DNA from: an uncultured virus (IMG/VR IMGVR_UViG_3300035501_000482)
Lineage: Duplodnaviria > Heunggongvirae > Uroviricota > Caudoviricetes
Length of the DNA: 20,216 bases
Strand: one strand, 5' to 3'
IMG/VR virus record: IMGVR_UViG_3300035501_000482
Both the position numbers and the translations under genes were made by a program. Within the stretch, counting starts at the first letter, position 1. Each line of letters begins with the position of its first letter. The notes under the pieces are model-generated. The model was not told where the DNA came from. It did not search any database and saw only the letters and a list, made by a program, of their open reading frames with translations. Below are positions 9,004 to 20,216 of the stretch, in pieces.

Positions 9004-9420
9004 ATGAAAAATAACAATTCAACTAGCACTGCTTCCAAACTGGAGGCTTTGGTATCAAACCAAATCTCAACAGCTATCGAAAATGCTAAGGCTTCTAAGA
9101 AACAGCCTAAAACCAAGAAGGAATCTAAACCAGAACCTGAAGCTAAAATCGAGGAAGTTACAAAGGAAGTAACCAACCAACAGAACTTAGCTATAGTAGA
9201 GAAGGTAATCAGTAACCGAGAAGTCAAATACCTTTATCCTGCAGATGTAGTTGATACTCTTGCTCGCAAAAGATGGAGACAAGCTACCAGAAACGAATTG
9301 CACACACTCGAAAGAAAGATGCACAGAATCCAGGATCAAAACTCCAAGGAATATCAGGAAGCTAAACGGGAATACGAAAAATTCTTGGCATCTCACTTAA
9401 AGCCCAATCAGATTGCTTAA
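9004..9420 (+). CDS. Hypothetical protein
   Basis: 138-aa ORF between P2 and a terminator. Confidence 0.85.
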   Translation: MKNNNSTSTASKLEALVSNQISTAIENAKASKKQPKTKKESKPEPEAKIEEVTKEVTNQQNLAIVEKVISNREVKYLYPADVVDTLARKRWRQATRNELHTLERKMHRIQDQNSKEYQEAKREYEKFLASHLKPNQIA

Positions 9421-9422
9421 TG

Positions 9423-9450
9423 GAGAAGGGGACTACGGTCCCCTTCTTTT
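9423..9450 (+). terminator. Intrinsic terminator
   Basis: GAGAAGGGGAC-TACG-GTCCCCTTC followed by TTTT. Confidence 0.85.
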
Positions 9451-9488
9451 CAAACTAAATTAATTACCCACTACAAAACATAACAACC

Positions 9489-9749
9489 ATGGCAACTGCA
9501 GCATACAGGGTTTTTGGAGATAAGGTCTTGCTCAAATGGAACAGAGACTTACTAGAATTACACAAAAGGGTCCTAACAACCTACTTAGTATCAAAAGGTA
9601 TAAAAGCTTCTACAAGGAAGAAGTTCTTTATAATCTATGATATGGATGTGACAGAAGACAATATCAAAGCTATATTTTATAAGCCCACTGACTTAGTAGT
9701 AAAAGCTCTGGTAATGGATAGAATAAAAGATATAATAGACATTTTATAG
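9489..9749 (+). CDS. Hypothetical protein
   Basis: 86-aa ORF at the start of a tightly packed gene run. Confidence 0.7.
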   Translation: MATAAYRVFGDKVLLKWNRDLLELHKRVLTTYLVSKGIKASTRKKFFIIYDMDVTEDNIKAIFYKPTDLVVKALVMDRIKDIIDIL

Positions 9750-9751
9750 GT

Positions 9752-10165
9752 ATGTATACAGAACAAGTTGGAAAGCTTTTCATTGGAAAGTTTAAAATGA
9801 AAATAAAGTATGTGCCTAATGATAAACCAGAAGGAACCACTCTTGGAGAACTTCCTACATTCTGGGATTTTAATCAGGTAAAGAAGGTATATAAGTTATT
9901 TACTGAAGAAGTAATAACGGATATACTCAAGATCAAGAGGCAATATAATAAACAAACACTTCCAGATTGGTATATACTGGGTAGATATAACCCATTAACC
10001 GATGAATTCGTTATGGATAAGGTTAAATATACCCACATGGCTTTTATTACTGGGCTTCCAAAAGGACACGTAATATATGCAGGAAAATCCAGTGAAGCTA
10101 TACGACCAATGGAGATATATAAGGATAAGTTTAGACAATACATTTTACACCTAATAAAGATATGA
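9752..10165 (+). CDS. Hypothetical protein
   Basis: 137-aa ORF with ATGA coupling to the next gene. Confidence 0.75.
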   Translation: MYTEQVGKLFIGKFKMKIKYVPNDKPEGTTLGELPTFWDFNQVKKVYKLFTEEVITDILKIKRQYNKQTLPDWYILGRYNPLTDEFVMDKVKYTHMAFITGLPKGHVIYAGKSSEAIRPMEIYKDKFRQYILHLIKI

Positions 10166-10488
10166 TAACACCAAACGGTAAAGAAATTAAGACAGAAAAC
10201 GAACTCTTCATGGAGAGATTCGGAGAAGAATGGAACAATCGATTAGCTGACGTAAAAGATTATAATGATTTTAGGCAGTTAGTTGGGAGTATGGCTGATA
10301 AATATATTATACTTAAGAAGCCAAAAGTTAAAAAGAATAAGATAGTTGGAGATAAGCAATGGAATTACTTCTATGCTGCTTATATTACACCAAGTAGAGC
10401 TAGGCTTTTCCCAGAGAAGCAGGCTTGGATATCAAATCGGAGGGAAATAGATGCGCAACGGAAGCAAAACCAAGGACCTTCACGGTAA
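10162..10488 (+). CDS. Hypothetical protein
   Basis: 108-aa ORF with an ATGA overlap. Confidence 0.7.
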   Translation: MITPNGKEIKTENELFMERFGEEWNNRLADVKDYNDFRQLVGSMADKYIILKKPKVKKNKIVGDKQWNYFYAAYITPSRARLFPEKQAWISNRREIDAQRKQNQGPSR

Positions 10489-10741
10489 TCTATACATGAT
10501 TAAAGGATGGGAAATACTCCCATCCTTTCCCGTTTATGATAAGTATACACATCTATCTTTCAGTAGGGATGTTATCAATCATATAAAGTATGTAACTTAT
10601 GGCCATAGGTTTGATGAGTACTTTATGCTAGTGCTAACCTGCTATGGGCTATGGGTTAAGTTTGAATTGAATTTTATAGAGCACAACGATTTAGAAGATA
10701 TAAGAAAAAGCTATATACATGGTAACAAATATCATTCGTAA
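10451..10741 (+). CDS. Hypothetical protein (start uncertain)
   Basis: 96-aa ORF filling the gap between neighbours. Confidence 0.6.
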   Translation: MRNGSKTKDLHGNLYMIKGWEILPSFPVYDKYTHLSFSRDVINHIKYVTYGHRFDEYFMLVLTCYGLWVKFELNFIEHNDLEDIRKSYIHGNKYHS

Positions 10742-11621
10742 CCCAAGACCAATGGGATTAACCGCTATGTCTCAGGAGTATCAGAAGACAAAAGAAGAAG
10801 GTACTCTGATGAAAATATACCAATATATAATCAATCAGTGGTACGTGAACACGGGTAACTTATGTGGAACTTACTATGATGTAAGTGAACTAGCCACTAA
10901 ATATGGTATACCAAAAGAGATGATCACTCTGTATATGAGAGATACCGTACTTAATTCCAAGTTATGGGATAAGGATAAGCAAGAGCAAATGGTACAAGGC
11001 CTGCTTGGAGAACAATTAATGTGGGCAATGGAGGACAGGATGGAAATAGTTAACCAGGTTAACCTATTAAAAAGATCTCAGGGAGGTAAGTATACCCCAT
11101 TTATAACTGCAGAGGTAAATAAAGCCATGAAACTTAGATTGGAGGCCTCTACCTCATTACAGTCAATAGTAAGGGGATTAACTGGAGGAGGTACTTATAA
11201 TATCTTTAATCAGTTCAATCAGCAGAATAATACGACTAATCTAGAGCAAAATAATTATATTACCATAGAACAAGCAAGGGAGATAATTCAAGAGTCCTCT
11301 AGATTAGAAGATAGAAGCGAAGAGGCAAAATACCTTGAAGCAAAATATGATATTGAAGCCCTGCCAGAAGTATGCGCCACAAAACAGACTGGGATTGATA
11401 CCTCTAAAGAAGGCCTTACGCTAAATAAAGCAGAGATAGAAAGTATAGTTGGAGATTACAAAGGAGCAATAGAAATATCCTCAAAGGAACACCATGAGAT
11501 CAGAAGGGAAATTGAGGAAAGAATAGGCCAAGATGAGGAGGACCCTGAGTTGGATATTTACGAAGATCCTATGCCAGATGAAGAAGTTAGTATTAGTTCA
11601 CAATATTTAATGCCACAGTAG
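10719..11621 (+). CDS. Hypothetical protein with HTH-like segment, coiled coil and acidic tail (terminase small subunit-like architecture, unconfirmed)
   Basis: 300-aa ORF with YYDVSELATKYGIPKEMITLYM (HTH-like) and an N/Q-rich linker. The function is inference only. Confidence 0.7.
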   Translation: MVTNIIRNPRPMGLTAMSQEYQKTKEEGTLMKIYQYIINQWYVNTGNLCGTYYDVSELATKYGIPKEMITLYMRDTVLNSKLWDKDKQEQMVQGLLGEQLMWAMEDRMEIVNQVNLLKRSQGGKYTPFITAEVNKAMKLRLEASTSLQSIVRGLTGGGTYNIFNQFNQQNNTTNLEQNNYITIEQAREIIQESSRLEDRSEEAKYLEAKYDIEALPEVCATKQTGIDTSKEGLTLNKAEIESIVGDYKGAIEISSKEHHEIRREIEERIGQDEEDPELDIYEDPMPDEEVSISSQYLMPQ

Positions 11622-11622
11622 T

Positions 11623-12282
11623 ATGTTTAATATTTTCAAAAGGAGAAAGCCAAGCGGTAAGCAAAACCAGGTTTACCTAAGCAGTGATAACCGAGTTATA
11701 TTAGGGGGTCCTTATGGATTGTTAATCCGTAAAATAATAAGGGATCTGAGTATAGTAAATAATATCTACGATGATGATGTGTATAGTTATATTTTGGATG
11801 ACTATAATGAGAATTACGAGGTATATGATTTAGTACCATTATTATTGCCATGCAGAGTACCAAAATTAATGTATGCTAGTCACCGTGACATGACTTTAAA
11901 GGCCTCCAAGGCAATATATAATGAGATATATAAGTCGGTTTTGGTTAATGCCGATGACTTAATCCCAGAATTATTCCATATAACTAAGGTACATGAAGAT
12001 CTATTAATGGGCCTGTATGATATATCAATACCATACATGGATAGAGCTGAAGTAGATTCAGACGAATTTAGAAACCTAATCCGTTACCATTATTTAAAGG
12101 AATGGGATGCTTTCTTTTTTGGTAACATGGACACTATTCAAGAGAACGTAGTGGCTTTCGATAACCTTATTATATCATTTATTAAATCTAGAGCGTCAAA
12201 CGAAGATAATAAACAAACAATACATAATGTTATCGAAAGAAGACTAGAAAAGATCGCAAAGGATGCCCAGCGAGACGAATAA
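11623..12282 (+). CDS. Hypothetical protein
   Basis: 219-aa ORF. Confidence 0.8.
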   Translation: MFNIFKRRKPSGKQNQVYLSSDNRVILGGPYGLLIRKIIRDLSIVNNIYDDDVYSYILDDYNENYEVYDLVPLLLPCRVPKLMYASHRDMTLKASKAIYNEIYKSVLVNADDLIPELFHITKVHEDLLMGLYDISIPYMDRAEVDSDEFRNLIRYHYLKEWDAFFFGNMDTIQENVVAFDNLIISFIKSRASNEDNKQTIHNVIERRLEKIAKDAQRDE

Positions 12283-12346
12283 CCTCAGCTTATATAAAAA
12301 TAATTAGTAATTTATTTGCTATATATAAAATAATGTAGTAATTTTG
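12283..12346 (+). promoter_or_regulatory. Bacteroidota-type promoter P3 with CCTCAGC box
   Basis: CCTCAGC 12283; TTTG 12315-12318; 20-nt spacer; TAATTTTG 12339-12346; 41 nt identical to P1. Confidence 0.85.
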
Positions 12347-12375
12347 CAGCGTAAAATTATAAATAATTAGTCGAT

Positions 12376-13038
12376 ATGATACACACATTAAACGAGTACA
12401 CCACCCTATATAACTTTACGGGTGATAACGAAAGCCCAATACAAAAACTTGAGATGGGCTTTTTCAAAAGAAATCGGGGCAGCTTACTATTCCATGCTGA
12501 TAACTTGATTAATGCTGGTTACGAATGCAACTCATTATATGGAGTCTTCAACATGTACAAGATGGTACATAAGCTGCAAACAATCCAAGGAAAAGAACAG
12601 GATCTCTACCATATTAGATTGGTATTCCTAATTGGATCCTATGAATTATTCGCTGAACTCCAGGTTAATACAAAACAATATAACGAGGATCCCGCTAAAA
12701 CATGGTTTGACTTACAGACTCCTAAAGATACCAGTAAATATCTTGCCCTAGATAATGGGTGGATATTACAATGGGAGGATGCCTTGAACCATTTATCAAG
12801 GCTTAACCTAATGGAAACTTGGATACAAGGCCTATCATTTATAGCTGCTTATTATAAACTAATGGATAAAGAGGGCTTAGAACTATCCTATGAGGAAACT
12901 AGAAATATGGACAAATTATATGAAGTACTTAAGGATTTAACCCATCTTATGGAAGCACCAGGCAAACTGGACTTCCTATACCATAGCCAAAATATTGCCC
13001 AAGCTATATCCGATAAGATGCACAGACTATATTACTAG
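12376..13038 (+). CDS. Hypothetical protein (putative early gene)
   Basis: 220-aa ORF between P3 and a terminator. Confidence 0.8.
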   Translation: MIHTLNEYTTLYNFTGDNESPIQKLEMGFFKRNRGSLLFHADNLINAGYECNSLYGVFNMYKMVHKLQTIQGKEQDLYHIRLVFLIGSYELFAELQVNTKQYNEDPAKTWFDLQTPKDTSKYLALDNGWILQWEDALNHLSRLNLMETWIQGLSFIAAYYKLMDKEGLELSYEETRNMDKLYEVLKDLTHLMEAPGKLDFLYHSQNIAQAISDKMHRLYY

Positions 13039-13068
13039 GATTTCCATACTGATTGTTTTATTTGTTCT

Positions 13069-13101
13069 GGTGGCTGGGTTAAACATTGCCCAGCCATCTT
13101 T
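13069..13101 (+). terminator. Probable intrinsic terminator
   Basis: GGTGGCTGGGT-N8-GCCCAGCCATC followed by TTT. Confidence 0.7.
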
Positions 13102-13109
13102 ACCTAGAA

Positions 13110-13172
13110 CCTCAGCTTTTATAAAATAATTTGAAAATAATTTGGTACATTAAAAATTTTGTCGTACCTTTG
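13110..13172 (+). promoter_or_regulatory. Bacteroidota-type promoter P4 with CCTCAGC box
   Basis: CCTCAGC 13110; TTTG 13141-13144; 20-nt spacer; TACCTTTG 13165-13172. Confidence 0.85.
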
Positions 13173-13199
13173 CAGTATAAATAATAAAGATATAAATAT

Positions 13200-13772
13200 A
13201 TGAATAATATGCAACCAACCAGAACTATAATGCCTATCAAGGCTCAACTTAACGGGAAAATTCCCTACATGAAACCTCTTATGGATAACAATGGTCATAC
13301 CATACTAAAGGCTAATAACCTAAGAGCTATACCCTCAAAATTTATACAGGCTTTACCAAAGCCAGCTCCATCTTATTATGCTTACTATGACCTAAGTAAT
13401 TACACCCATTATGAATTACTCCAGTTACTAAACCAGGAGATGCACAAACTAGAATTAACTTATATAGAAGAAATACATCAGGACCCATACCTAGAATTAG
13501 GCACTGGTTACGAACCAATATATTACGGAGAATGGGTATACTTCTTACTTACCCTAGCCTATATTATAAGTGAACATACCTATAATTTCGTTTACCACGA
13601 ATATGAGGCACTCGTAAAACAAAAGCCATTTAACAATGAATATTTCTCTGGAGTACTATTCAACAGTAAGGGTGCCAGAATACCAACTTTAAAATCCACT
13701 CTATTAGAGATACAGAGGGATCTAGAGTTATTCTATCATTACTACAGAGAACTATATTCGAATGACAAATAA
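13200..13772 (+). CDS. Hypothetical Tyr-rich protein immediately upstream of the hairpin array
   Basis: 190-aa ORF after P4. Confidence 0.8.
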   Translation: MNNMQPTRTIMPIKAQLNGKIPYMKPLMDNNGHTILKANNLRAIPSKFIQALPKPAPSYYAYYDLSNYTHYELLQLLNQEMHKLELTYIEEIHQDPYLELGTGYEPIYYGEWVYFLLTLAYIISEHTYNFVYHEYEALVKQKPFNNEYFSGVLFNSKGARIPTLKSTLLEIQRDLELFYHYYRELYSNDK

Positions 13773-14292
13773 AGTTTCATATTTATATATGCTATCCACC
13801 GAGGTGCTCTCGGGGACATTGGTAATGCACTTGGGAAAGACCATTACTAAATGATACAGCATTCTTTACAGTTTTCACAATGATTAATATCCGAAGCAGA
13901 GCTTCTGCGAAGACCCTCTGCTATTTTAAACTAGAGCATAAACATTTTGATTATATCTTGACCTATATACCCCTGAGAAGGGACTGGTCATCACATTATT
14001 CATAATTAATTGGTTATTAAAAAACACCATACCTGGCCTCTGGGAAGATCCCAGGTTATTAACTAGAACATTCATGATACTTTGAATATATTTTTATCCA
14101 TCCCAGGCCCTTGAGAAAGCCCCTTGGCTTTTACTTATAACGAACTGTATTTTCATGTAAGACATATTATTCATATTCGTAGCTTGGCTCATGTGAATGC
14201 CCCAAGCTTTTACAAGCAAAAACACCGTGACTAAATCATATATTTTAAACAGATTAAGCTAGGCCCTTGAGAAAGTCCCTAGCTTTTATTTT
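13773..14292 (+). ncRNA. Putative small-RNA array: 7 conserved GNGA-tetraloop hairpins separated by unique antisense-like spacers
   Basis: Hairpins at 13822-13847, 13895-13922, 13959-13990, 14031-14056, 14103-14127, 14181-14208 and 14256-14285. The stems covary and there is no ORF. The last hairpin is followed by a T-rich tract. Confidence 0.75.
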
Positions 14293-14336
14293 GTAACCCA
14301 TTCTAGGCAATGCCCAACCATGGACCTAGACCCAAA

Positions 14337-14410
14337 CCTCAGAATTTTGAAAATAAAATGAATTTTTTCTCTAAAATATTTTGATATTTAAAAATAATTT
14401 CGTAACTTTG
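14337..14410 (+). promoter_or_regulatory. Bacteroidota-type promoter P5 with CCTCAGA box
   Basis: CCTCAGA 14337; TTTG 14380-14383; 19-nt spacer; TAACTTTG 14403-14410. Confidence 0.8.
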
Positions 14411-14436
14411 CAGTAAATAATTAGAGATATAAATAT

Positions 14437-14571
14437 ATGATTAAAAACAATGAAACCAACCGCTATCCGGGCACCCAATGCCCTAAACCAAATGCCCAAG
14501 GCAATTGCCGGGGCTCCGAGATTAAACTAATCACAGTATTAACAAGACAACAATTAAAATCAACAGTATGA
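14437..14571 (+). CDS. Putative 44-aa small protein (not in ORF track)
   Basis: First ATG after P5. Its leader (AGATATAAATAT) is identical to that of the 13200 gene, and its stop overlaps the next start (ATGA). Sequence: MIKNNETNRYPGTQCPKPNAQGNCRGSEIKLITVLTRQQLKSTV. Confidence 0.45.
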   Translation: MIKNNETNRYPGTQCPKPNAQGNCRGSEIKLITVLTRQQLKSTV

Positions 14572-15137
14572 TATACCAAGCATTTTTATATCCTGGAAGC
14601 TCACAAGATTTCCTAAACCAGGCTTCAAAAGAATTTCCAAAAGATACAGTATCTAACGCTATGCGTAACTACTTCACTAAGTGGATTACCCAAACCAACC
14701 AGAGACCAGAAATCGAACTGGCAGGAAACAATAACTATGGTCCTTACTTAGCACTAGAACATGCCATAGCTAGCCTATCTGAAAAGATAGAACAAACCAG
14801 CTTACTAATAATAGCCCATGACGGTTTCCTATCAGTAACCCAGGAAATGAAACCAAGTAACAACCGCTACGTATGGCTATTATCTATATTCTTAGCTTAT
14901 CCAGATGGTACTATAGTTGATCTACATCAAGCTTACAGTACAAGAGAAAAAGCTATTGAAGCTCTACAAGATAGGATACAACTTTCCAGAGACTCCTTCT
15001 CGGGAGATATACTAGATCAAGGACGTATAACCTACAATGATCCCGATCACTATAGCTGGATCAAAACAGAAGGGGTTTACTCAGAGATCAAACTAACAGT
15101 AGACTCATTAAAACTAGACTTATATGCCAACCACTAA
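14568..15137 (+). CDS. Hypothetical protein (putative early gene)
   Basis: 189-aa ORF. Confidence 0.8.
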   Translation: MIYQAFLYPGSSQDFLNQASKEFPKDTVSNAMRNYFTKWITQTNQRPEIELAGNNNYGPYLALEHAIASLSEKIEQTSLLIIAHDGFLSVTQEMKPSNNRYVWLLSIFLAYPDGTIVDLHQAYSTREKAIEALQDRIQLSRDSFSGDILDQGRITYNDPDHYSWIKTEGVYSEIKLTVDSLKLDLYANH

Positions 15138-15723
15138 TTTAAATTACACACATATGAAACCAAATAACTTTGTCCAAAGAGTTAAAGTAACTCTTTTCCT
15201 AGACCAGAACGTAACCAATACATATGAGTTCAACATATACGATTCTATCATAGACTTCGTATCAGACCAATACAGCTTAAAACAAATCCTAGAAATGGCC
15301 ATGGACGAAGATAACATGACCCTTAACAATGGAGAATACGGAGAATTTACCAATTACCACGAGTTCTTCAACTTAAAGAAAGACTTAGACTCAGGCCTAG
15401 TAAAGGATTACTCACTAGAAGTACATATAACCCATGAAACCAAGGGTAACGACTACCTATCAGTAAAGGATCTTCAACTAGAGATTACCAGAGCAGCCAA
15501 AGCCTATCTAGAGAATCAAATAGATAACGCACTTATAGATATTAGGAGTAACTTCGGAAATTCACTAGAAGACTTAAGAACTACCCTATTATCTTTGAAA
15601 GAAATATCTGATGAAGATCCAGACTACTCTCCAACTAATATAGGTAAGAAACTAGTAAATAAACTGGCAATACGAATAGCTAACGAACTGAACATCCTCG
15701 ACTATAAAGAACTACTCAAATGA
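15124..15723 (+). CDS. Hypothetical acidic protein (start may be 15154)
   Basis: 199-aa ORF with ATGA coupling to the next gene. Confidence 0.8.
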   Translation: MPTTNLNYTHMKPNNFVQRVKVTLFLDQNVTNTYEFNIYDSIIDFVSDQYSLKQILEMAMDEDNMTLNNGEYGEFTNYHEFFNLKKDLDSGLVKDYSLEVHITHETKGNDYLSVKDLQLEITRAAKAYLENQIDNALIDIRSNFGNSLEDLRTTLLSLKEISDEDPDYSPTNIGKKLVNKLAIRIANELNILDYKELLK

Positions 15724-16073
15724 TATACAGATACCTAGACTCCAAAGAATGGCAGGGCTTCGAACTAATAATCGAAGAGAACTGGATAGAAAACCCAGAA
15801 TGCTACCAGCTAGCTAATCACTGGCATCACCTCAGGGTAGTAGAAACCCTCATCCAAGAACTAATAAAGAAAAGCCACGGTAAAATCAAAAGCCAGGATC
15901 AACTATACCAAATGGATATACCAGACCAGACCCATATAGAAAAACTAATATGGAAAGCCTACAAGGCCATAGCTAATAAACTATACCCAGAAGAGAAAGC
16001 CTGGCCAGGCAATCAATCCGACTCAAACCTATTCTGGGCAATCCACGATTACTCAATCCAGAACCCAGAGTAA
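15720..16073 (+). CDS. Hypothetical protein
   Basis: 117-aa ORF followed by a terminator. Confidence 0.8.
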   Translation: MIYRYLDSKEWQGFELIIEENWIENPECYQLANHWHHLRVVETLIQELIKKSHGKIKSQDQLYQMDIPDQTHIEKLIWKAYKAIANKLYPEEKAWPGNQSDSNLFWAIHDYSIQNPE

Positions 16074-16082
16074 GACAAACAG

Positions 16083-16110
16083 AAGCCCTCCTAAATCCCG
16101 GAGGGCTTTT
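16083..16110 (+). terminator. Intrinsic terminator
   Basis: AAGCCCTCC-TAAATCCC-GGAGGGC followed by TTTT. Confidence 0.75.
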
Positions 16111-16439
16111 CCATGTTACCCTCCCACTCCAAACACAAAAAGAAATCCTAAACAAACCCCACAAATCTCAGACCCACAAACAAAAATAGAGGCCCACAAA
16201 TCCTAATACCCATACAAATAGAACCCACTCACCCCAAACAAGAAACAATAGGAAAAACAAAACCCACCAAACACCTAACCTGAATATACCAATAATATAA
16301 TACCCAACAAACGTACATATACATAGGCCTATAATAAATAACCCATTATAAACTAACCCTTCCTTTCCTTTCCTTTCTCCTTTTTTCCCTTCCATTTCAG
16401 CAATCCACTTCAATTTCTAACATCAGGTAGCTCAAAACT

Positions 16440-17100
16440 CATATCCTAGTTCCGGGGGAACGCCACCCCTGGGGCCTTGAGTTGAGGTTGCCTAATCCCG
16501 AACCAACCCACTGTCCACCCCACAGCTATCTAGCCCTATTAGAGGTACTTTCCGGCTATCCCAGCCAAATTTCCCAAGGGCCCAGCTTGGGGCACCCCAA
16601 ACCCCTAAATCCCAGCCTTAATCCCAGTCAAGGCCCAGACTAATCCCCAAAAGCCACAACGCTATCCCTTGAGACACGTAATGTCAGTTTAAGGCCGCTT
16701 TTTTAACACGTAGCTCATTTTATCGCGCCCTATACAAAAGTTAGTACTTTGGGGCTCAGGATTTAGGGGATTAGGCCTTAAATCCCAGAATTTTTGGGGC
16801 CTCAGAAGCTAGGATTTAATAAGGATTTAGGGCCCCATACCAGTAAATCCCTTTGCCTAAGAGGGGCAATTTAGGGGCCCCAAATGACCTAAATTGGGGC
16901 TCAGGATTAGGCAACTTTTGCATTAATTTCAAGGCCCCAAGGAGGCAAATCCCAGTCCTTTTAAGGCCCCTAATTTGGGCAAATTCAAGGCCCCAAATTA
17001 AAGCCCCAGTTCTCCCTTCAAGGCCCCAGAGGCCCCCAAAATATTAAAGATTAGGGGCCCCTAATGGAAGTTATCCCATGCCCAAATCCCATGCCCAGAA
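16440..17100. repeat. GC-richer non-coding region dense in short direct and inverted repeats
   Basis: AAGGCCCC x4 (16931, 16963, 16987, 17020); TTGGGGCTCAGGATT x2 (16749, 16894); palindrome ATTAGGGGCCCCTAAT at 17050-17065; nested inverted repeats. Confidence 0.7.
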
Positions 17101-17163
17101 CCTCAGCTTTTATAAAATAGTTAGTAAAATATTTGCTCAATTCTAAATTATTTCGTACCTTTG
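17101..17163 (+). promoter_or_regulatory. Bacteroidota-type promoter P6 with CCTCAGC box
   Basis: CCTCAGC 17101; TTTG 17132-17135; 20-nt spacer; TACCTTTG 17156-17163. Confidence 0.85.
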
Positions 17164-17204
17164 CAGAGTATTAAAAACATTATTAATTTAAAAAATATAG
17201 AACA

Positions 17205-17687
17205 ATGAAACAATTAAAACCCACCGTACTGCTGCTCCCAATCAACTGGACTGCATCGGACAACTTCCTTACAATCGGAACTGCTATCTACAAGGACATC
17301 GACTTCACCCTTGCCAATGGCAACACTTATTCCTGCTCAGGGGTCATTGCCATTAACTACAACAAACAACTTAACGAACAATTCCTTACGGATGAACTCG
17401 ATGCTTTCCAAGATCACTTACAGGATCTAGGGCTTTCACTACCAATACCAGAATCCTATATCCCAGACAATGAAGCTGCACTTGCATGCTGGGCCAATTA
17501 CCTATTGCTCCTAGGATCACAGGTACTGGATGCCAATGCCTTTGAAACCTACAAAACCGAACTACTTAACAACTGCGATAACCTTTATCCAGACGGAACG
17601 GAATTTCTCCAGGATCGCTATCACCAGGACTTCTGCAATAACATCATCGAATCACTTAACAATCAATATTCATTAACAGACTTTTAA
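17205..17687 (+). CDS. Hypothetical acidic protein (putative early gene)
   Basis: 160-aa ORF after P6. Confidence 0.8.
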   Translation: MKQLKPTVLLLPINWTASDNFLTIGTAIYKDIDFTLANGNTYSCSGVIAINYNKQLNEQFLTDELDAFQDHLQDLGLSLPIPESYIPDNEAALACWANYLLLLGSQVLDANAFETYKTELLNNCDNLYPDGTEFLQDRYHQDFCNNIIESLNNQYSLTDF

Positions 17688-20094: not shown

Positions 20095-20216
20095 CTACAA
20101 AAAAGAATTAGTTATGTAGTTTAAAGGTATAAACTACAAAAAAGAATTAGTTATGTAGTTTAAAGGTATAAACTACAAAAAAGAATTAGTTATGTAGTTT
20201 AAAGGTATAAACTACA
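20091..20216. repeat. Perfect 39-bp tandem repeat, 3 full copies plus a partial copy (runs off window)
   Basis: TAAACTACAAAAAAGAATTAGTTATGTAGTTTAAAGGTA at 20091, 20130, 20169 and partial at 20208. Each unit contains the 9-bp inverted repeat TAAACTACA/TGTAGTTTA. Confidence 0.95.

Follow-up and report, generated by a model that had tools for sequence, protein, structure and literature searches.

A seven-hairpin array with spacers antisense to gene starts, downstream of an orphan gene in an uncultured member of the Caudoviricetes

Introduction

What could a phage do with seven small hairpins in a row, different in sequence and alike in shape, placed directly after the stop codon of an orphan gene? 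The question is raised by a stretch of 20,216 nucleotides (nt) from an uncultured virus (IMG/VR record IMGVR_UViG_3300035501_000482; Caudoviricetes), hereafter the window, which belongs to a gut-type phage with a genome of roughly 82 kb; all the evidence on the array comes from this one genome. A preliminary description had proposed that the hairpins downstream of gene 13200 are the repeats of a repeat-spacer RNA array, conserved in structure and not in sequence, which would be cut from a precursor into handle-plus-guide RNAs with a CRISPR-like layout. Here we report that the array, spanning positions 13819–14285 on the plus strand, carries a covarying hairpin fold and that complementarity to gene starts of the same phage is enriched in its spacers, and we tentatively suggest that it serves the control of translation.

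Results

Architecture of the array and covariation of the hairpins

A scan for GNGA between complementary triplets placed the loop starts at 13833, 13907, 13975, 14042, 14113, 14193 and 14269, exactly as first described. Six of the hairpins are canonical and one, hp3, is a variant (Table 1). The canonical form has an outer stem of 5–9 base pairs (bp), whose innermost closing pair is always G-C, then a 2x2 internal loop and an inner stem of 3 bp, which ends in a constant U-A pair and is capped by GNGA. The outer mismatch of the internal loop is always C.C, and the inner one is A.A, U.C, C.U or C.C, thus mostly two pyrimidines (Y.Y); the retention of this loop in six of the seven hairpins, noted previously, was found again. 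The outer stem of hp5 consists of 3 bp, a mismatch and 2 bp.

When the six canonical hairpins were aligned without gaps, 9 of the 30 columns were invariant (G8, C9, T13, G14, G16, A17, A18, C22 and C23), all of them unpaired or helix-closing: they belong to the GNGA loop, the U-A closing pair, the C.C mismatch and the G-C closing pair. The mean column identity of the 30-nt cores was 71%, and sequence conservation dropped to background right outside the hairpin. Both stems vary yet stay paired, as had been claimed: standard pairs occupied 90.9% of the pair cells, compared with 66.9 ± 4.1 in column shuffles (reached in 0 of 500), and 8 of the 11 stem pairs were altered on both sides (5 of 500 shuffles). 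Two compensated changes distinguish hp6 from hp7. As a control, sliding the 3' partners lowered the pairing to 19–55%.

A strict Watson–Crick scan, with an inner stem of 3 bp, a 2x2 gap and an outer stem of at least 5 bp, returned five hairpins on the plus strand of the window, all within the array, and none on the minus strand; the mean was 0.033 (never more than 1) when the window was shuffled 300 times with dinucleotides kept, and 0.0005 when the array region was shuffled 2000 times. Moreover, a covariance model built from the six canonical hairpins scored them at 34.8–41.7 bits, the next-best site of the window at 13.2 and hp3 at 8.6. Covariation, slid controls and strict scan support the proposal that the hairpins are under selection for an RNA fold and not for sequence.

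The folding energies of the hairpins range from −7.6 to −13.4 kcal/mol, and three of the seven (hp1, hp2 and hp7) clearly beat their own shuffles, at most 1 of 200 folding as well. The lowest-energy fold of hp5 alone is a different hairpin; in a 558-nt fold of the region the proposed shape was adopted by five of the seven, hp4 having a competing fold. A run of four T lies within 3 nt of the stem at hp2, hp5, hp6 and hp7 and is longest after hp7, which is likely the operon terminator. The GNRA-type loops, these T-runs and the neighbouring genes, which lie on the plus strand, are all in keeping with the plus strand as the RNA strand, as had been assumed.

Repeat unit and spacers

The spacers are 36–53 nt long and contain 72–81% A+T. 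Their length and AU-richness match the preliminary description, whereas its view of them as unique does not wholly hold, since alternate spacers share a weak homology: sp2, sp4 and sp6 are homologous copies, and sp3 and sp5 probably so. An alignment of hp2-sp2-hp3, hp4-sp4-hp5 and hp6-sp6-hp7 resolved the array into hp1 plus three two-hairpin (A-B) superunits, and thus points to a unit of about 140–150 nt instead of the proposed cleavage unit of about 70 nt. The loops of type A are GCGA, GGGA and GTGA, and those of type B are all GAGA. The statement that the array is invisible to repeat finders proved half right: Tandem Repeats Finder gave no rows for it, while a repeat search paired hp5 with hp7 and hp6 with hp7 at 78% identity, T-run included.

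Complementarity between the spacers and the start regions of phage genes

That repeat search also gave the starting observation of this part of the work, namely that 14163–14176 is the perfect complement of 13198–13211, the start of gene 13200. We therefore compared the eight non-hairpin segments of the array with the windows from −20 to +12 of 32 genes and counted 18 antisense 10-mers, against 1.74 ± 1.66 in 500 dinucleotide shuffles (0 of 500), an enrichment of about tenfold; no sense 10-mer to the same start windows was found, and antisense 12-mers numbered 7, against 0.15 in shuffles. The observed count was never reached by the controls, which comprised random targets, other ATGs and AT-rich windows (0 of 1000) as well as random query segments. 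The array makes up 2.8% of the window and yet holds 18 of its 67 antisense 10-mers. With this excess of antisense to start regions of the same phage, the spacers cannot be called arbitrary; the spacer motif kept across the superunits is the antisense segment.

The matches are unevenly distributed among the genes. Ten of the 15 maximal matches of at least 9 nt fall on the 6 genes that come first after a promoter, and the longest ones are directed to genes 13200 (14/14), 18741 (14/14) and 14437 (12/12), the chief targets, each the first gene after a promoter. On reading the start regions of this phage we saw no motif of the Shine-Dalgarno type. In the predicted fold of 13181–14296 the start of gene 13200 pairs with 14163–14176 (P about 1.0) and 14239–14246 (P about 0.9), in the spacers that flank hp6. 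The features of the locus are collected in Table 1.

Table 1. Hairpins, antisense segments and flanking features of the array (positions in the window; folding energies with the number of shuffles folding as well).
Feature	Position	Strand	Description
Promoter of gene 13200	13134–13175	+	conserved phage promoter (TTTG ... TAccTTTGCAG); drives gene 13200 and presumably the array
Leader and start-codon region of gene 13200	13182–13211	+	main predicted target; antisense matches from five spacer sites
Gene 13200	13200–13772	+	190-residue ORFan upstream of the array
Antisense segment	13774–13790	+	right after the stop codon; 16/17 to the start region of gene 18741; 10 nt to the start of 13200/14437
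hp1	13819–13850 (core 13822–13847)	+	GGGA loop, CTT/AAG inner stem, CA/AC internal loop; 34.8 bits; −9.6 kcal/mol, 1/200
hp2	13895–13922	+	GCGA loop, type A; 38.4 bits; then TATTTT
Antisense segment	13951–13959	+	9/9 to positions −13 to −5 of gene 13200
hp3 (variant)	13959–13990	+	GAGA loop, 4-bp inner stem, 7x3 internal loop; 8.6 bits
Antisense copy	13992–14019	+	whole leader and start of gene 13200; 24/30 positions, 2 gaps
hp4	14031–14056	+	GGGA loop, type A; 37.0 bits
Antisense segment, imperfect	14077–14098	+	17/22 to 13189–13210
hp5	14102–14127	+	GAGA loop, type B, imperfect outer stem; 36.2 bits; then CTTTTAC
Antisense segment	14163–14176	+	14/14 to positions −2 to +12 of gene 13200
hp6	14181–14208	+	GTGA loop, type A; 39.0 bits; then TTTTAC
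Antisense segment	14234–14246	+	12/12 to the start region of gene 14437; 10/10 to that of 13200
hp7	14256–14285	+	GAGA loop, type B, longest stem; 41.7 bits; −13.1 kcal/mol, 1/200; then TTTTATTTT
Next conserved promoter	14372–14413	+	42-nt family, motif at 14403–14413; right boundary of the array

Genomic context of the array

The window is phage DNA, as judged from an SbcC-like fragment, a PDDEXK/RusA-like nuclease, a KTSC protein and many orphan open reading frames (ORFs); all its credible genes lie on the plus strand, and no tRNA was found in it. The protein of gene 13200 has a single match among 5.8 billion proteins, which is itself, on two contigs, the longest of 82,216 nt. It matched nothing in Pfam, PHROG, NCBIfam or PADLOC, and tblastn gave no match in 50,697 phage records. 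The two proteins that flank the array, 13200 and 14568, have no relatives in IMG/VR, and the DNA of 13100–14500, compared with the phage records, gave one irrelevant match of 6%. The AlphaFold2 model of the 13200 protein was unusable (predicted local distance difference test, pLDDT, 47.5), with no usable Atlas match.

A 42-nt promoter family with the boxes TTTG and TAnnTTTGCAG occurs in four copies, at 12308, 13134, 14372 and 17125. The exact motif TAnnTTTGCAG is found on the plus strand at 2903, 12339, 13165, 14403 and 17156, and a one-mismatch copy precedes gene 18741. We take this motif to be a promoter of the Bacteroidota type, and for this reason the host presumably belongs to that phylum. 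As to the promoter type, sigma-ABfr promoters are mentioned in the accessible part of PMC11697453. The motif TAnnTTTGYAG, exact or with one mismatch, is absent from 13176–14402 and from the minus strand in or beside the array; therefore, the array is most simply the 3' part of a transcription unit starting at 13175, and it is most likely the 3' untranslated region (UTR) of the gene 13200 mRNA. Co-transcription with gene 13200, already considered probable in the preliminary description, fits with these promoter positions.

Eighty loci of IMG/VR encode a homologue of gene 10719, with 49–62% identity, and genes 9004–11623 are common to most of them; protein 10719 had no match in the species genomes. 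By contrast, homologues of genes 12376 through 17205 were found in 0 of the 80 related loci. The gene content thus places the array in a hypervariable island of promoter-flanked orphan-gene cassettes. Before each cassette stands a module composed of CCyAGAACCTCAG, an A/T-rich stretch, TTTG and TAnnTTTGCAG (12300–12353, 13103–13179, 14335–14413 and 17094–17170), as in a PeSL-like shuffling island.

Other features of the window were observed outside the array. Downstream of gene 15720–16073 extends a non-coding stretch of about 1 kb (16074–17100), which opens with a terminator-like hairpin and continues strongly C/A-rich (GC skew −0.47), while its last part abounds in short repeats and in palindromes of the form GGGGCC/GGCCCC; a look-alike gap in the closest related phage (L135, 11998–12732) folds with a z-score of −5.4. 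The stretch may serve as an origin or for packaging, or it may encode a large RNA. Inside this C-rich stretch lies the only plausible minus-strand gene, an ORF of 81 codons (16168–16413) with a very hydrophobic product. The GC-rich palindrome at 16570–16594 could pair with hp7 along its 5' arm and loop (17/19) and with hp6 along its 3' arm, the C-rich letters of the internal loop included (11/11), each match alone being at chance level (E 2.2). Finally, at the right end of the window (20109–20197) there are three copies of TAGTTATGTAG with a spacing of 39 nt, which may begin a tandem repeat running off the window.

Searches for the same or similar arrays

The preliminary description had suggested a covariance-model search of Rfam and of phage genomes, and this yielded neither a family nor a second array. 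In the whole window Rfam gave no match at the gathering score and, at E ≤ 10, three unrelated small nucleolar RNA or microRNA models with E > 5. With the model of the canonical hairpins, the best score in MT121964.1 was 12.6 bits, the 80 related loci gave 0 matches at E ≤ 0.1 under default filters, and five full related records gave three single matches, all in one record. A looser scan for hairpin clusters found no array in MT121964.1 or in the 80 loci.

Pattern searches were extended to larger collections. The two-hairpin pattern matched one locus in IMG/VR, a GC-rich coding repeat, and the three-hairpin pattern one locus, again a coding repeat. At least 118 loci of metagenomes matched the two-hairpin pattern; among the matches listed there was no analogous array, and 13 locus-strands carried at least two hairpin-like matches, all near-identical short tandem repeats in contigs of 61–69% G+C. 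In one genome for each of 185,579 species, the three-hairpin pattern matched 31 loci, none a real analogue, several being regular archaeal arrays that do not form this hairpin. The exact core of hp5/hp7 gave four single matches in IMG/VR and no array. Distant analogues could be missed by these searches, because the patterns require the exact core and spacing of this array. As a separate observation, perfect palindromes GGGGCCTTTGCGAAAGGCCCC recur every 66 nt in L047, L080, L083, L089 and other contigs of one metagenome (63–65% G+C); they are unrelated to the phage array and may themselves form a repeat-spacer array.

In the literature on tandem GNRA hairpins in phages and on the transcriptome and non-coding RNA of Bacteroides phages we found no description of such an array. 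Seven hairpins kept in structure and grouped into two-hairpin superunits, together with spacers antisense to starts of the same phage, thus appear to be an undescribed combination.

Single modules in related phages

Although no second array was found, related phages carry single elements of a similar kind. One conserved hairpin stands 3' of the gene 5160 homologue in 49 of the 80 related loci; its loop reads GAGA, GCGA or GTGA, the inner stem is CCT/AGG, and the stem is continuous over about 14 bp and leads into an A/T-rich tail. The terminator of the window at the position of gene 5160 has a different form. In the complete related phage G001, two GNGA hairpins (41722–41751 and 81895–81924, 25.8 and 21.1 bits) each follow a gene and precede a T-run. 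GNGA-capped hairpins are therefore the terminator style of this group, from which the array hairpins differ by their retained C.C/Y.Y internal loop.

Antisense segments occur beside such terminators as well. In locus L123, a cassette whose start region is AAAAATATGAAAACAAC ends about 1 kb further on with a stop codon, 3 bases, a 13-mer, a terminator hairpin and the next promoter, and the 13-mer (10898–10910) is perfectly antisense to the start region of its own cassette. In a survey of 70 loci, of which 4 were skipped at locus ends, the 13-mer was present downstream of the cassette in 58 of the 66 examined, and in 52 it matched the complement of the local start region without a mismatch. The 48 nt next to the 13-mer occur in 21 distinct versions, among which the terminator stems vary with compensated changes. 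A second segment, a 14-mer just before the GNGA terminator (1259–1272 of L123), has its antisense match at a gene start 8 kb away and is perfect in 14 of 49 loci. These modules of antisense and terminator parallel the array and are a lead and not a proof.

Discussion

The reading that we favour, with a probability of roughly 0.4, is that the antisense and hairpin modules of the 3' UTR constitute an amplified RNA device controlling the translation of phage genes. The starting point would be the single module of this phage group, that is, a short antisense to a leader and start-codon region followed by a terminator-type GNGA hairpin at the end of a cassette, which here would have been duplicated as a two-hairpin superunit to give hp1 and three A-B pairs. 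The AU-rich spacers would pair with start regions, both in their own mRNA and in further cassette genes close to a promoter (14437 and 18741), either in cis by fold-back or in trans as stable 3' fragments, and would thereby restrict translation or set its timing. These RNAs would be protected by the hairpins, of which the distal ones with U-runs (hp5–hp7) would end transcription, and the invariant GNGA loop and C.C/Y.Y internal loop could be the recognition site of a putative protein. The hairpin fold with its covariation, the place of the array and the enrichment of antisense in the spacers are shown by the analysis; transcription of the array, pairing in vivo, the effect on translation and the protein partner are what we infer in this proposal from the sequence, and a handle-plus-guide logic, as first imagined, is possible for the array.

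Several points weigh against this proposal. The antisense test was post hoc, having been devised after the repeat match had been seen; the counted k-mers overlap and, as sp2, sp4 and sp6, and probably sp3 and sp5, are homologous copies, the independent antisense events are fewer than the counts imply. With automatic ORF calls, the antisense excess was present in three of eight sources (the window, L123 and L128) and absent in L135, L186, L195, L196 and L198. By duplex energy, one of the eight spacer segments beat its shuffles, and its target is a doubtful start (7703). The co-folding score of the 13200 start was 0.79, against 0.35 ± 0.23 in shuffled arrays (0 of 60), but other genes reached up to 0.76, and control starts reached a ddG of −8 to −14 kcal/mol, so that the energy calculations offer modest support for the predicted pairing between spacers and starts. 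No orthologous array in which covariation could be followed was found in MT121964.1 or the 80 related loci, and in the related phages no compensatory changes were seen between the start region and its antisense partner, for either the 13-mer or the 14-mer. Lastly, the minus strand of the region folds at least as stably (−152.4 kcal/mol, z −3.24) as the plus strand (−126 kcal/mol, z −2.29).

Two other explanations retain some weight, both in our view unlikely. According to the first, the seven hairpins offer multivalent binding to one RNA-binding protein, as a sponge or a platform for assembly or, like nut/boxB, to load an antitermination factor, and the antisense matches in the spacers are incidental. 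Every one of the nine invariant positions is unpaired or closes a helix, as protein recognition predicts, and the GNRA-type loop closed by U-A resembles boxB of phage lambda. A possible partner would be the product of gene 1153–1860, a protein of 235 amino acids weakly similar to NusG/LoaP/UpxY (E from 3e-4 to 0.014, far below the curated cut-offs), which matches a PHROG annotated as transcription antiterminator (E 1e-5) and is 42–45% identical to proteins in two phage records; however, the NusG-like gene also occurs in a related phage that has no array. No partner was found otherwise, the model of the 13200 protein being of no use in this respect, and matches to a boxA-type consensus were not enriched (26 with up to 3 mismatches, against 25.5 expected). 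Moreover, protein binding leaves the antisense enrichment unexplained.

According to the second, which we rate no higher, the hairpins are plain tandem terminators and 3' stabilisers that provide sevenfold fail-safe termination and protection from exonucleases, without any role in trans. The T-runs at four of the seven hairpins, the 78% identity among hp5–hp7 that extends into the T-run, and the single GNGA hairpins with T-runs placed after genes in the 49 related loci and at the two sites of G001 all point in this direction. On the other hand, three hairpins have no T-run, a consensus terminator scan flagged none of the seven, and the other terminator-like hairpins of the window (13071–13096 and the one after gene 15720–16073) have a different form. 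The 2x2 mismatch, which should not persist in a terminator because it weakens it, is kept in 6 of 6 canonical hairpins, while the related terminators have continuous stems; and termination requires neither invariant loop letters nor antisense spacers.

That the array acts at the level of DNA, as leftover cassette boundaries from recombination or as single-stranded hairpins for replication or packaging, seems improbable to us. Its place in an island (12376–17205) unmatched in all 80 related loci, and the same promoter module flanking each cassette, like the PeSL cassettes in the available text of PMC4122927, would suit this idea, but the module does not follow the hairpins, the compensated stems and the strand-specific invariant loop letters argue for a selected single-strand fold, and the antisense segments all have one orientation (18 antisense against 0 sense 10-mers).

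We consider it very improbable that a dedicated nuclease processes the array, as a precursor of CRISPR-like kind, into RNAs of about 70 nt that each join a handle to a guide against foreign nucleic acid. Conserved structure does alternate with variable spacers of specific complementarity; the complementarity found within the window, however, is to the phage's own start regions, and the duplication unit comprises two hairpins. The repeats are not near-identical, and no cas gene or other dedicated nuclease family was recognised among 34 ORFs compared with Pfam and PHROGs and 8 ORFs compared with PADLOC, nor any defence protein, in these 20 kb of a phage of roughly 82 kb, so that the absence of a cas gene from the window stands and the CRISPR-like nature first suggested does not. 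No analogous array appeared among the matches listed in IMG/VR, the metagenomes and the 185,579 species genomes. Least probable of all is that the minus strand is the functional one, the start-like sequences being true starts of tiny genes or RNAs: it folds slightly better and two segments open ORFs, 26 and 25 codons long, whose first three residues are those of gene 13200, but the remaining start-like segments either lack an ATG or open no more than 2 or 12 codons, the minus strand in and beside the array has no promoter motif, exact or with one mismatch, and all credible genes of the window lie on the plus strand. Moreover, the loops on the minus strand would be UCNC, and the T-runs would come before the hairpins.

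A bolder version of our proposal, speculative and somewhat less likely than the protein-binding and terminator explanations, would make the array a phage RNA regulator of a new kind, in function a Cas-free guide array directed at the phage itself. Its three consecutive start-region clamps, in each of which one spacer precedes hairpin A and another hairpin B, would lie in a 3' UTR and, either released from it or folding back, would silence the translation of promoter-proximal accessory cassettes on a timer; the invariant GNGA/C.C core would be the handle of a dedicated RNA-binding protein, and the single modules of related phages would be simpler ancestors.

To our knowledge, RNA-level gene control is almost unexplored in phages of Bacteroidota-type hosts, and we know of no classical Shine-Dalgarno, Hfq and ProQ toolkit in such hosts. 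If the control of translation by the array is real, the accessory cassettes of this phage group would carry a built-in antisense copy of their own start beside the terminator, and one phage would have amplified this module into an array of seven hairpins. This would be a compact and transferable way to self-limit or time newly acquired genes, and would point to a protein that binds the hairpins. Even if our proposal is wrong, the locus is a clean natural case in which paralogous copies have retained a small RNA motif through compensatory changes.

Comparison with known systems

Close counterparts of the hairpins are the intrinsic terminators of the related phages, with which they share the GNGA loop, the U-A closing pair, a 3-bp inner stem of CCU/AGG type, the outer stem and the T-run. 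Unlike these terminators, which are single and have continuous or nearly continuous stems, the array hairpins keep the C.C/Y.Y loop, stand seven in a row and in three cases have no T-run.

Among phage antisense RNAs, sar of P22 and c4 of P1/P7 act on ant, c4 being derived from the same transcript as its target. The array resembles them as a phage RNA complementary to the start region of a phage gene, and differs in that they are single, defined RNAs of immunity regions and not a 3' array of seven hairpins. Repeated small hairpins whose loops are conserved rather than their stems also recall the CsrB/RsmZ sponges and the nut/boxB sites of lambda. A sponge of the CsrB/RsmZ type was rejected, GGA being present in two of the seven loops (hp1 and hp4, GGGA) and the others reading GCGA, GAGA in three cases and GUGA. 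As regards the nut site, GNGA caps all seven hairpins and is closed by U-A in the six that were aligned, a GNRA-like loop of the boxB type; a complete nut site was rejected, since boxA is at chance level, with its two matches in the array on the minus strand, and no N-like protein was recognised. Toxin-antitoxin RNA of type III (ToxI-like), whose near-identical tandem repeats stand beside a toxin gene of the ToxN/AbiQ type, was discarded too, given repeats that are not near-identical and flanking proteins without Pfam or PADLOC match. The same applies to a CRISPR array, whose candidate repeats here have 71% mean identity and 9 invariant columns, escape Tandem Repeats Finder and have no cas or repeat-specific nuclease family beside them among the ORFs compared in these 20 kb; within the window, the only spacer matches found were antisense to the phage's own start regions.

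The hypervariable island, with its orphan genes and a conserved regulatory module for each gene, is similar to the PeSL cassettes of T4-type phages, as far as the available parts of PMC4122927 and PMC2839356 describe them. PeSL elements consist of one stem-loop and one promoter per gene (accessible text of PMC4122927), whereas the hairpins of the array follow each other without intervening promoters or genes. With the FopS/GibS RNAs of Bacteroides, as presented in the available part of PMC11697453, the array shares a similar unit size (65–70 nt), a layout in which an AU-rich single strand, predicted in the array to pair with start regions, precedes a hairpin, and presumably the host phylum. 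According to the same part of that source, FopS RNAs conserve a 5' seed and not the hairpin, have their own promoters and are dispersed in the genome; here, the Rfam model of the family gave no match and no TAnnTTTGYAG motif with up to one mismatch serves the units in 13176–14402, so the relationship to FopS raised in the preliminary description was not upheld.

The nearest known mechanism is pairing between the 3' UTR and the 5' UTR, which controls the translation or stability of the same mRNA in icaR of Staphylococcus aureus and in hbs of Bacillus subtilis, according to the accessible parts of PMC3868564 and PMC5737220, respectively. As in these two cases, segments of the presumed 3' UTR that the array forms are complementary to the start region of their own mRNA, with 14/14 positions at 14163–14176 and four further segments. 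Unlike in icaR and hbs, as far as they are described there, the element is repeated, interleaved with seven hairpins and also matched to the starts of other cassettes, and it lies in a phage in whose start regions we saw no motif of the Shine-Dalgarno type. By analogy, the array would act chiefly in the manner of an autoregulatory 3' UTR, or of an antisense RNA derived from a 3' end, with a terminator-type hairpin as its building block.

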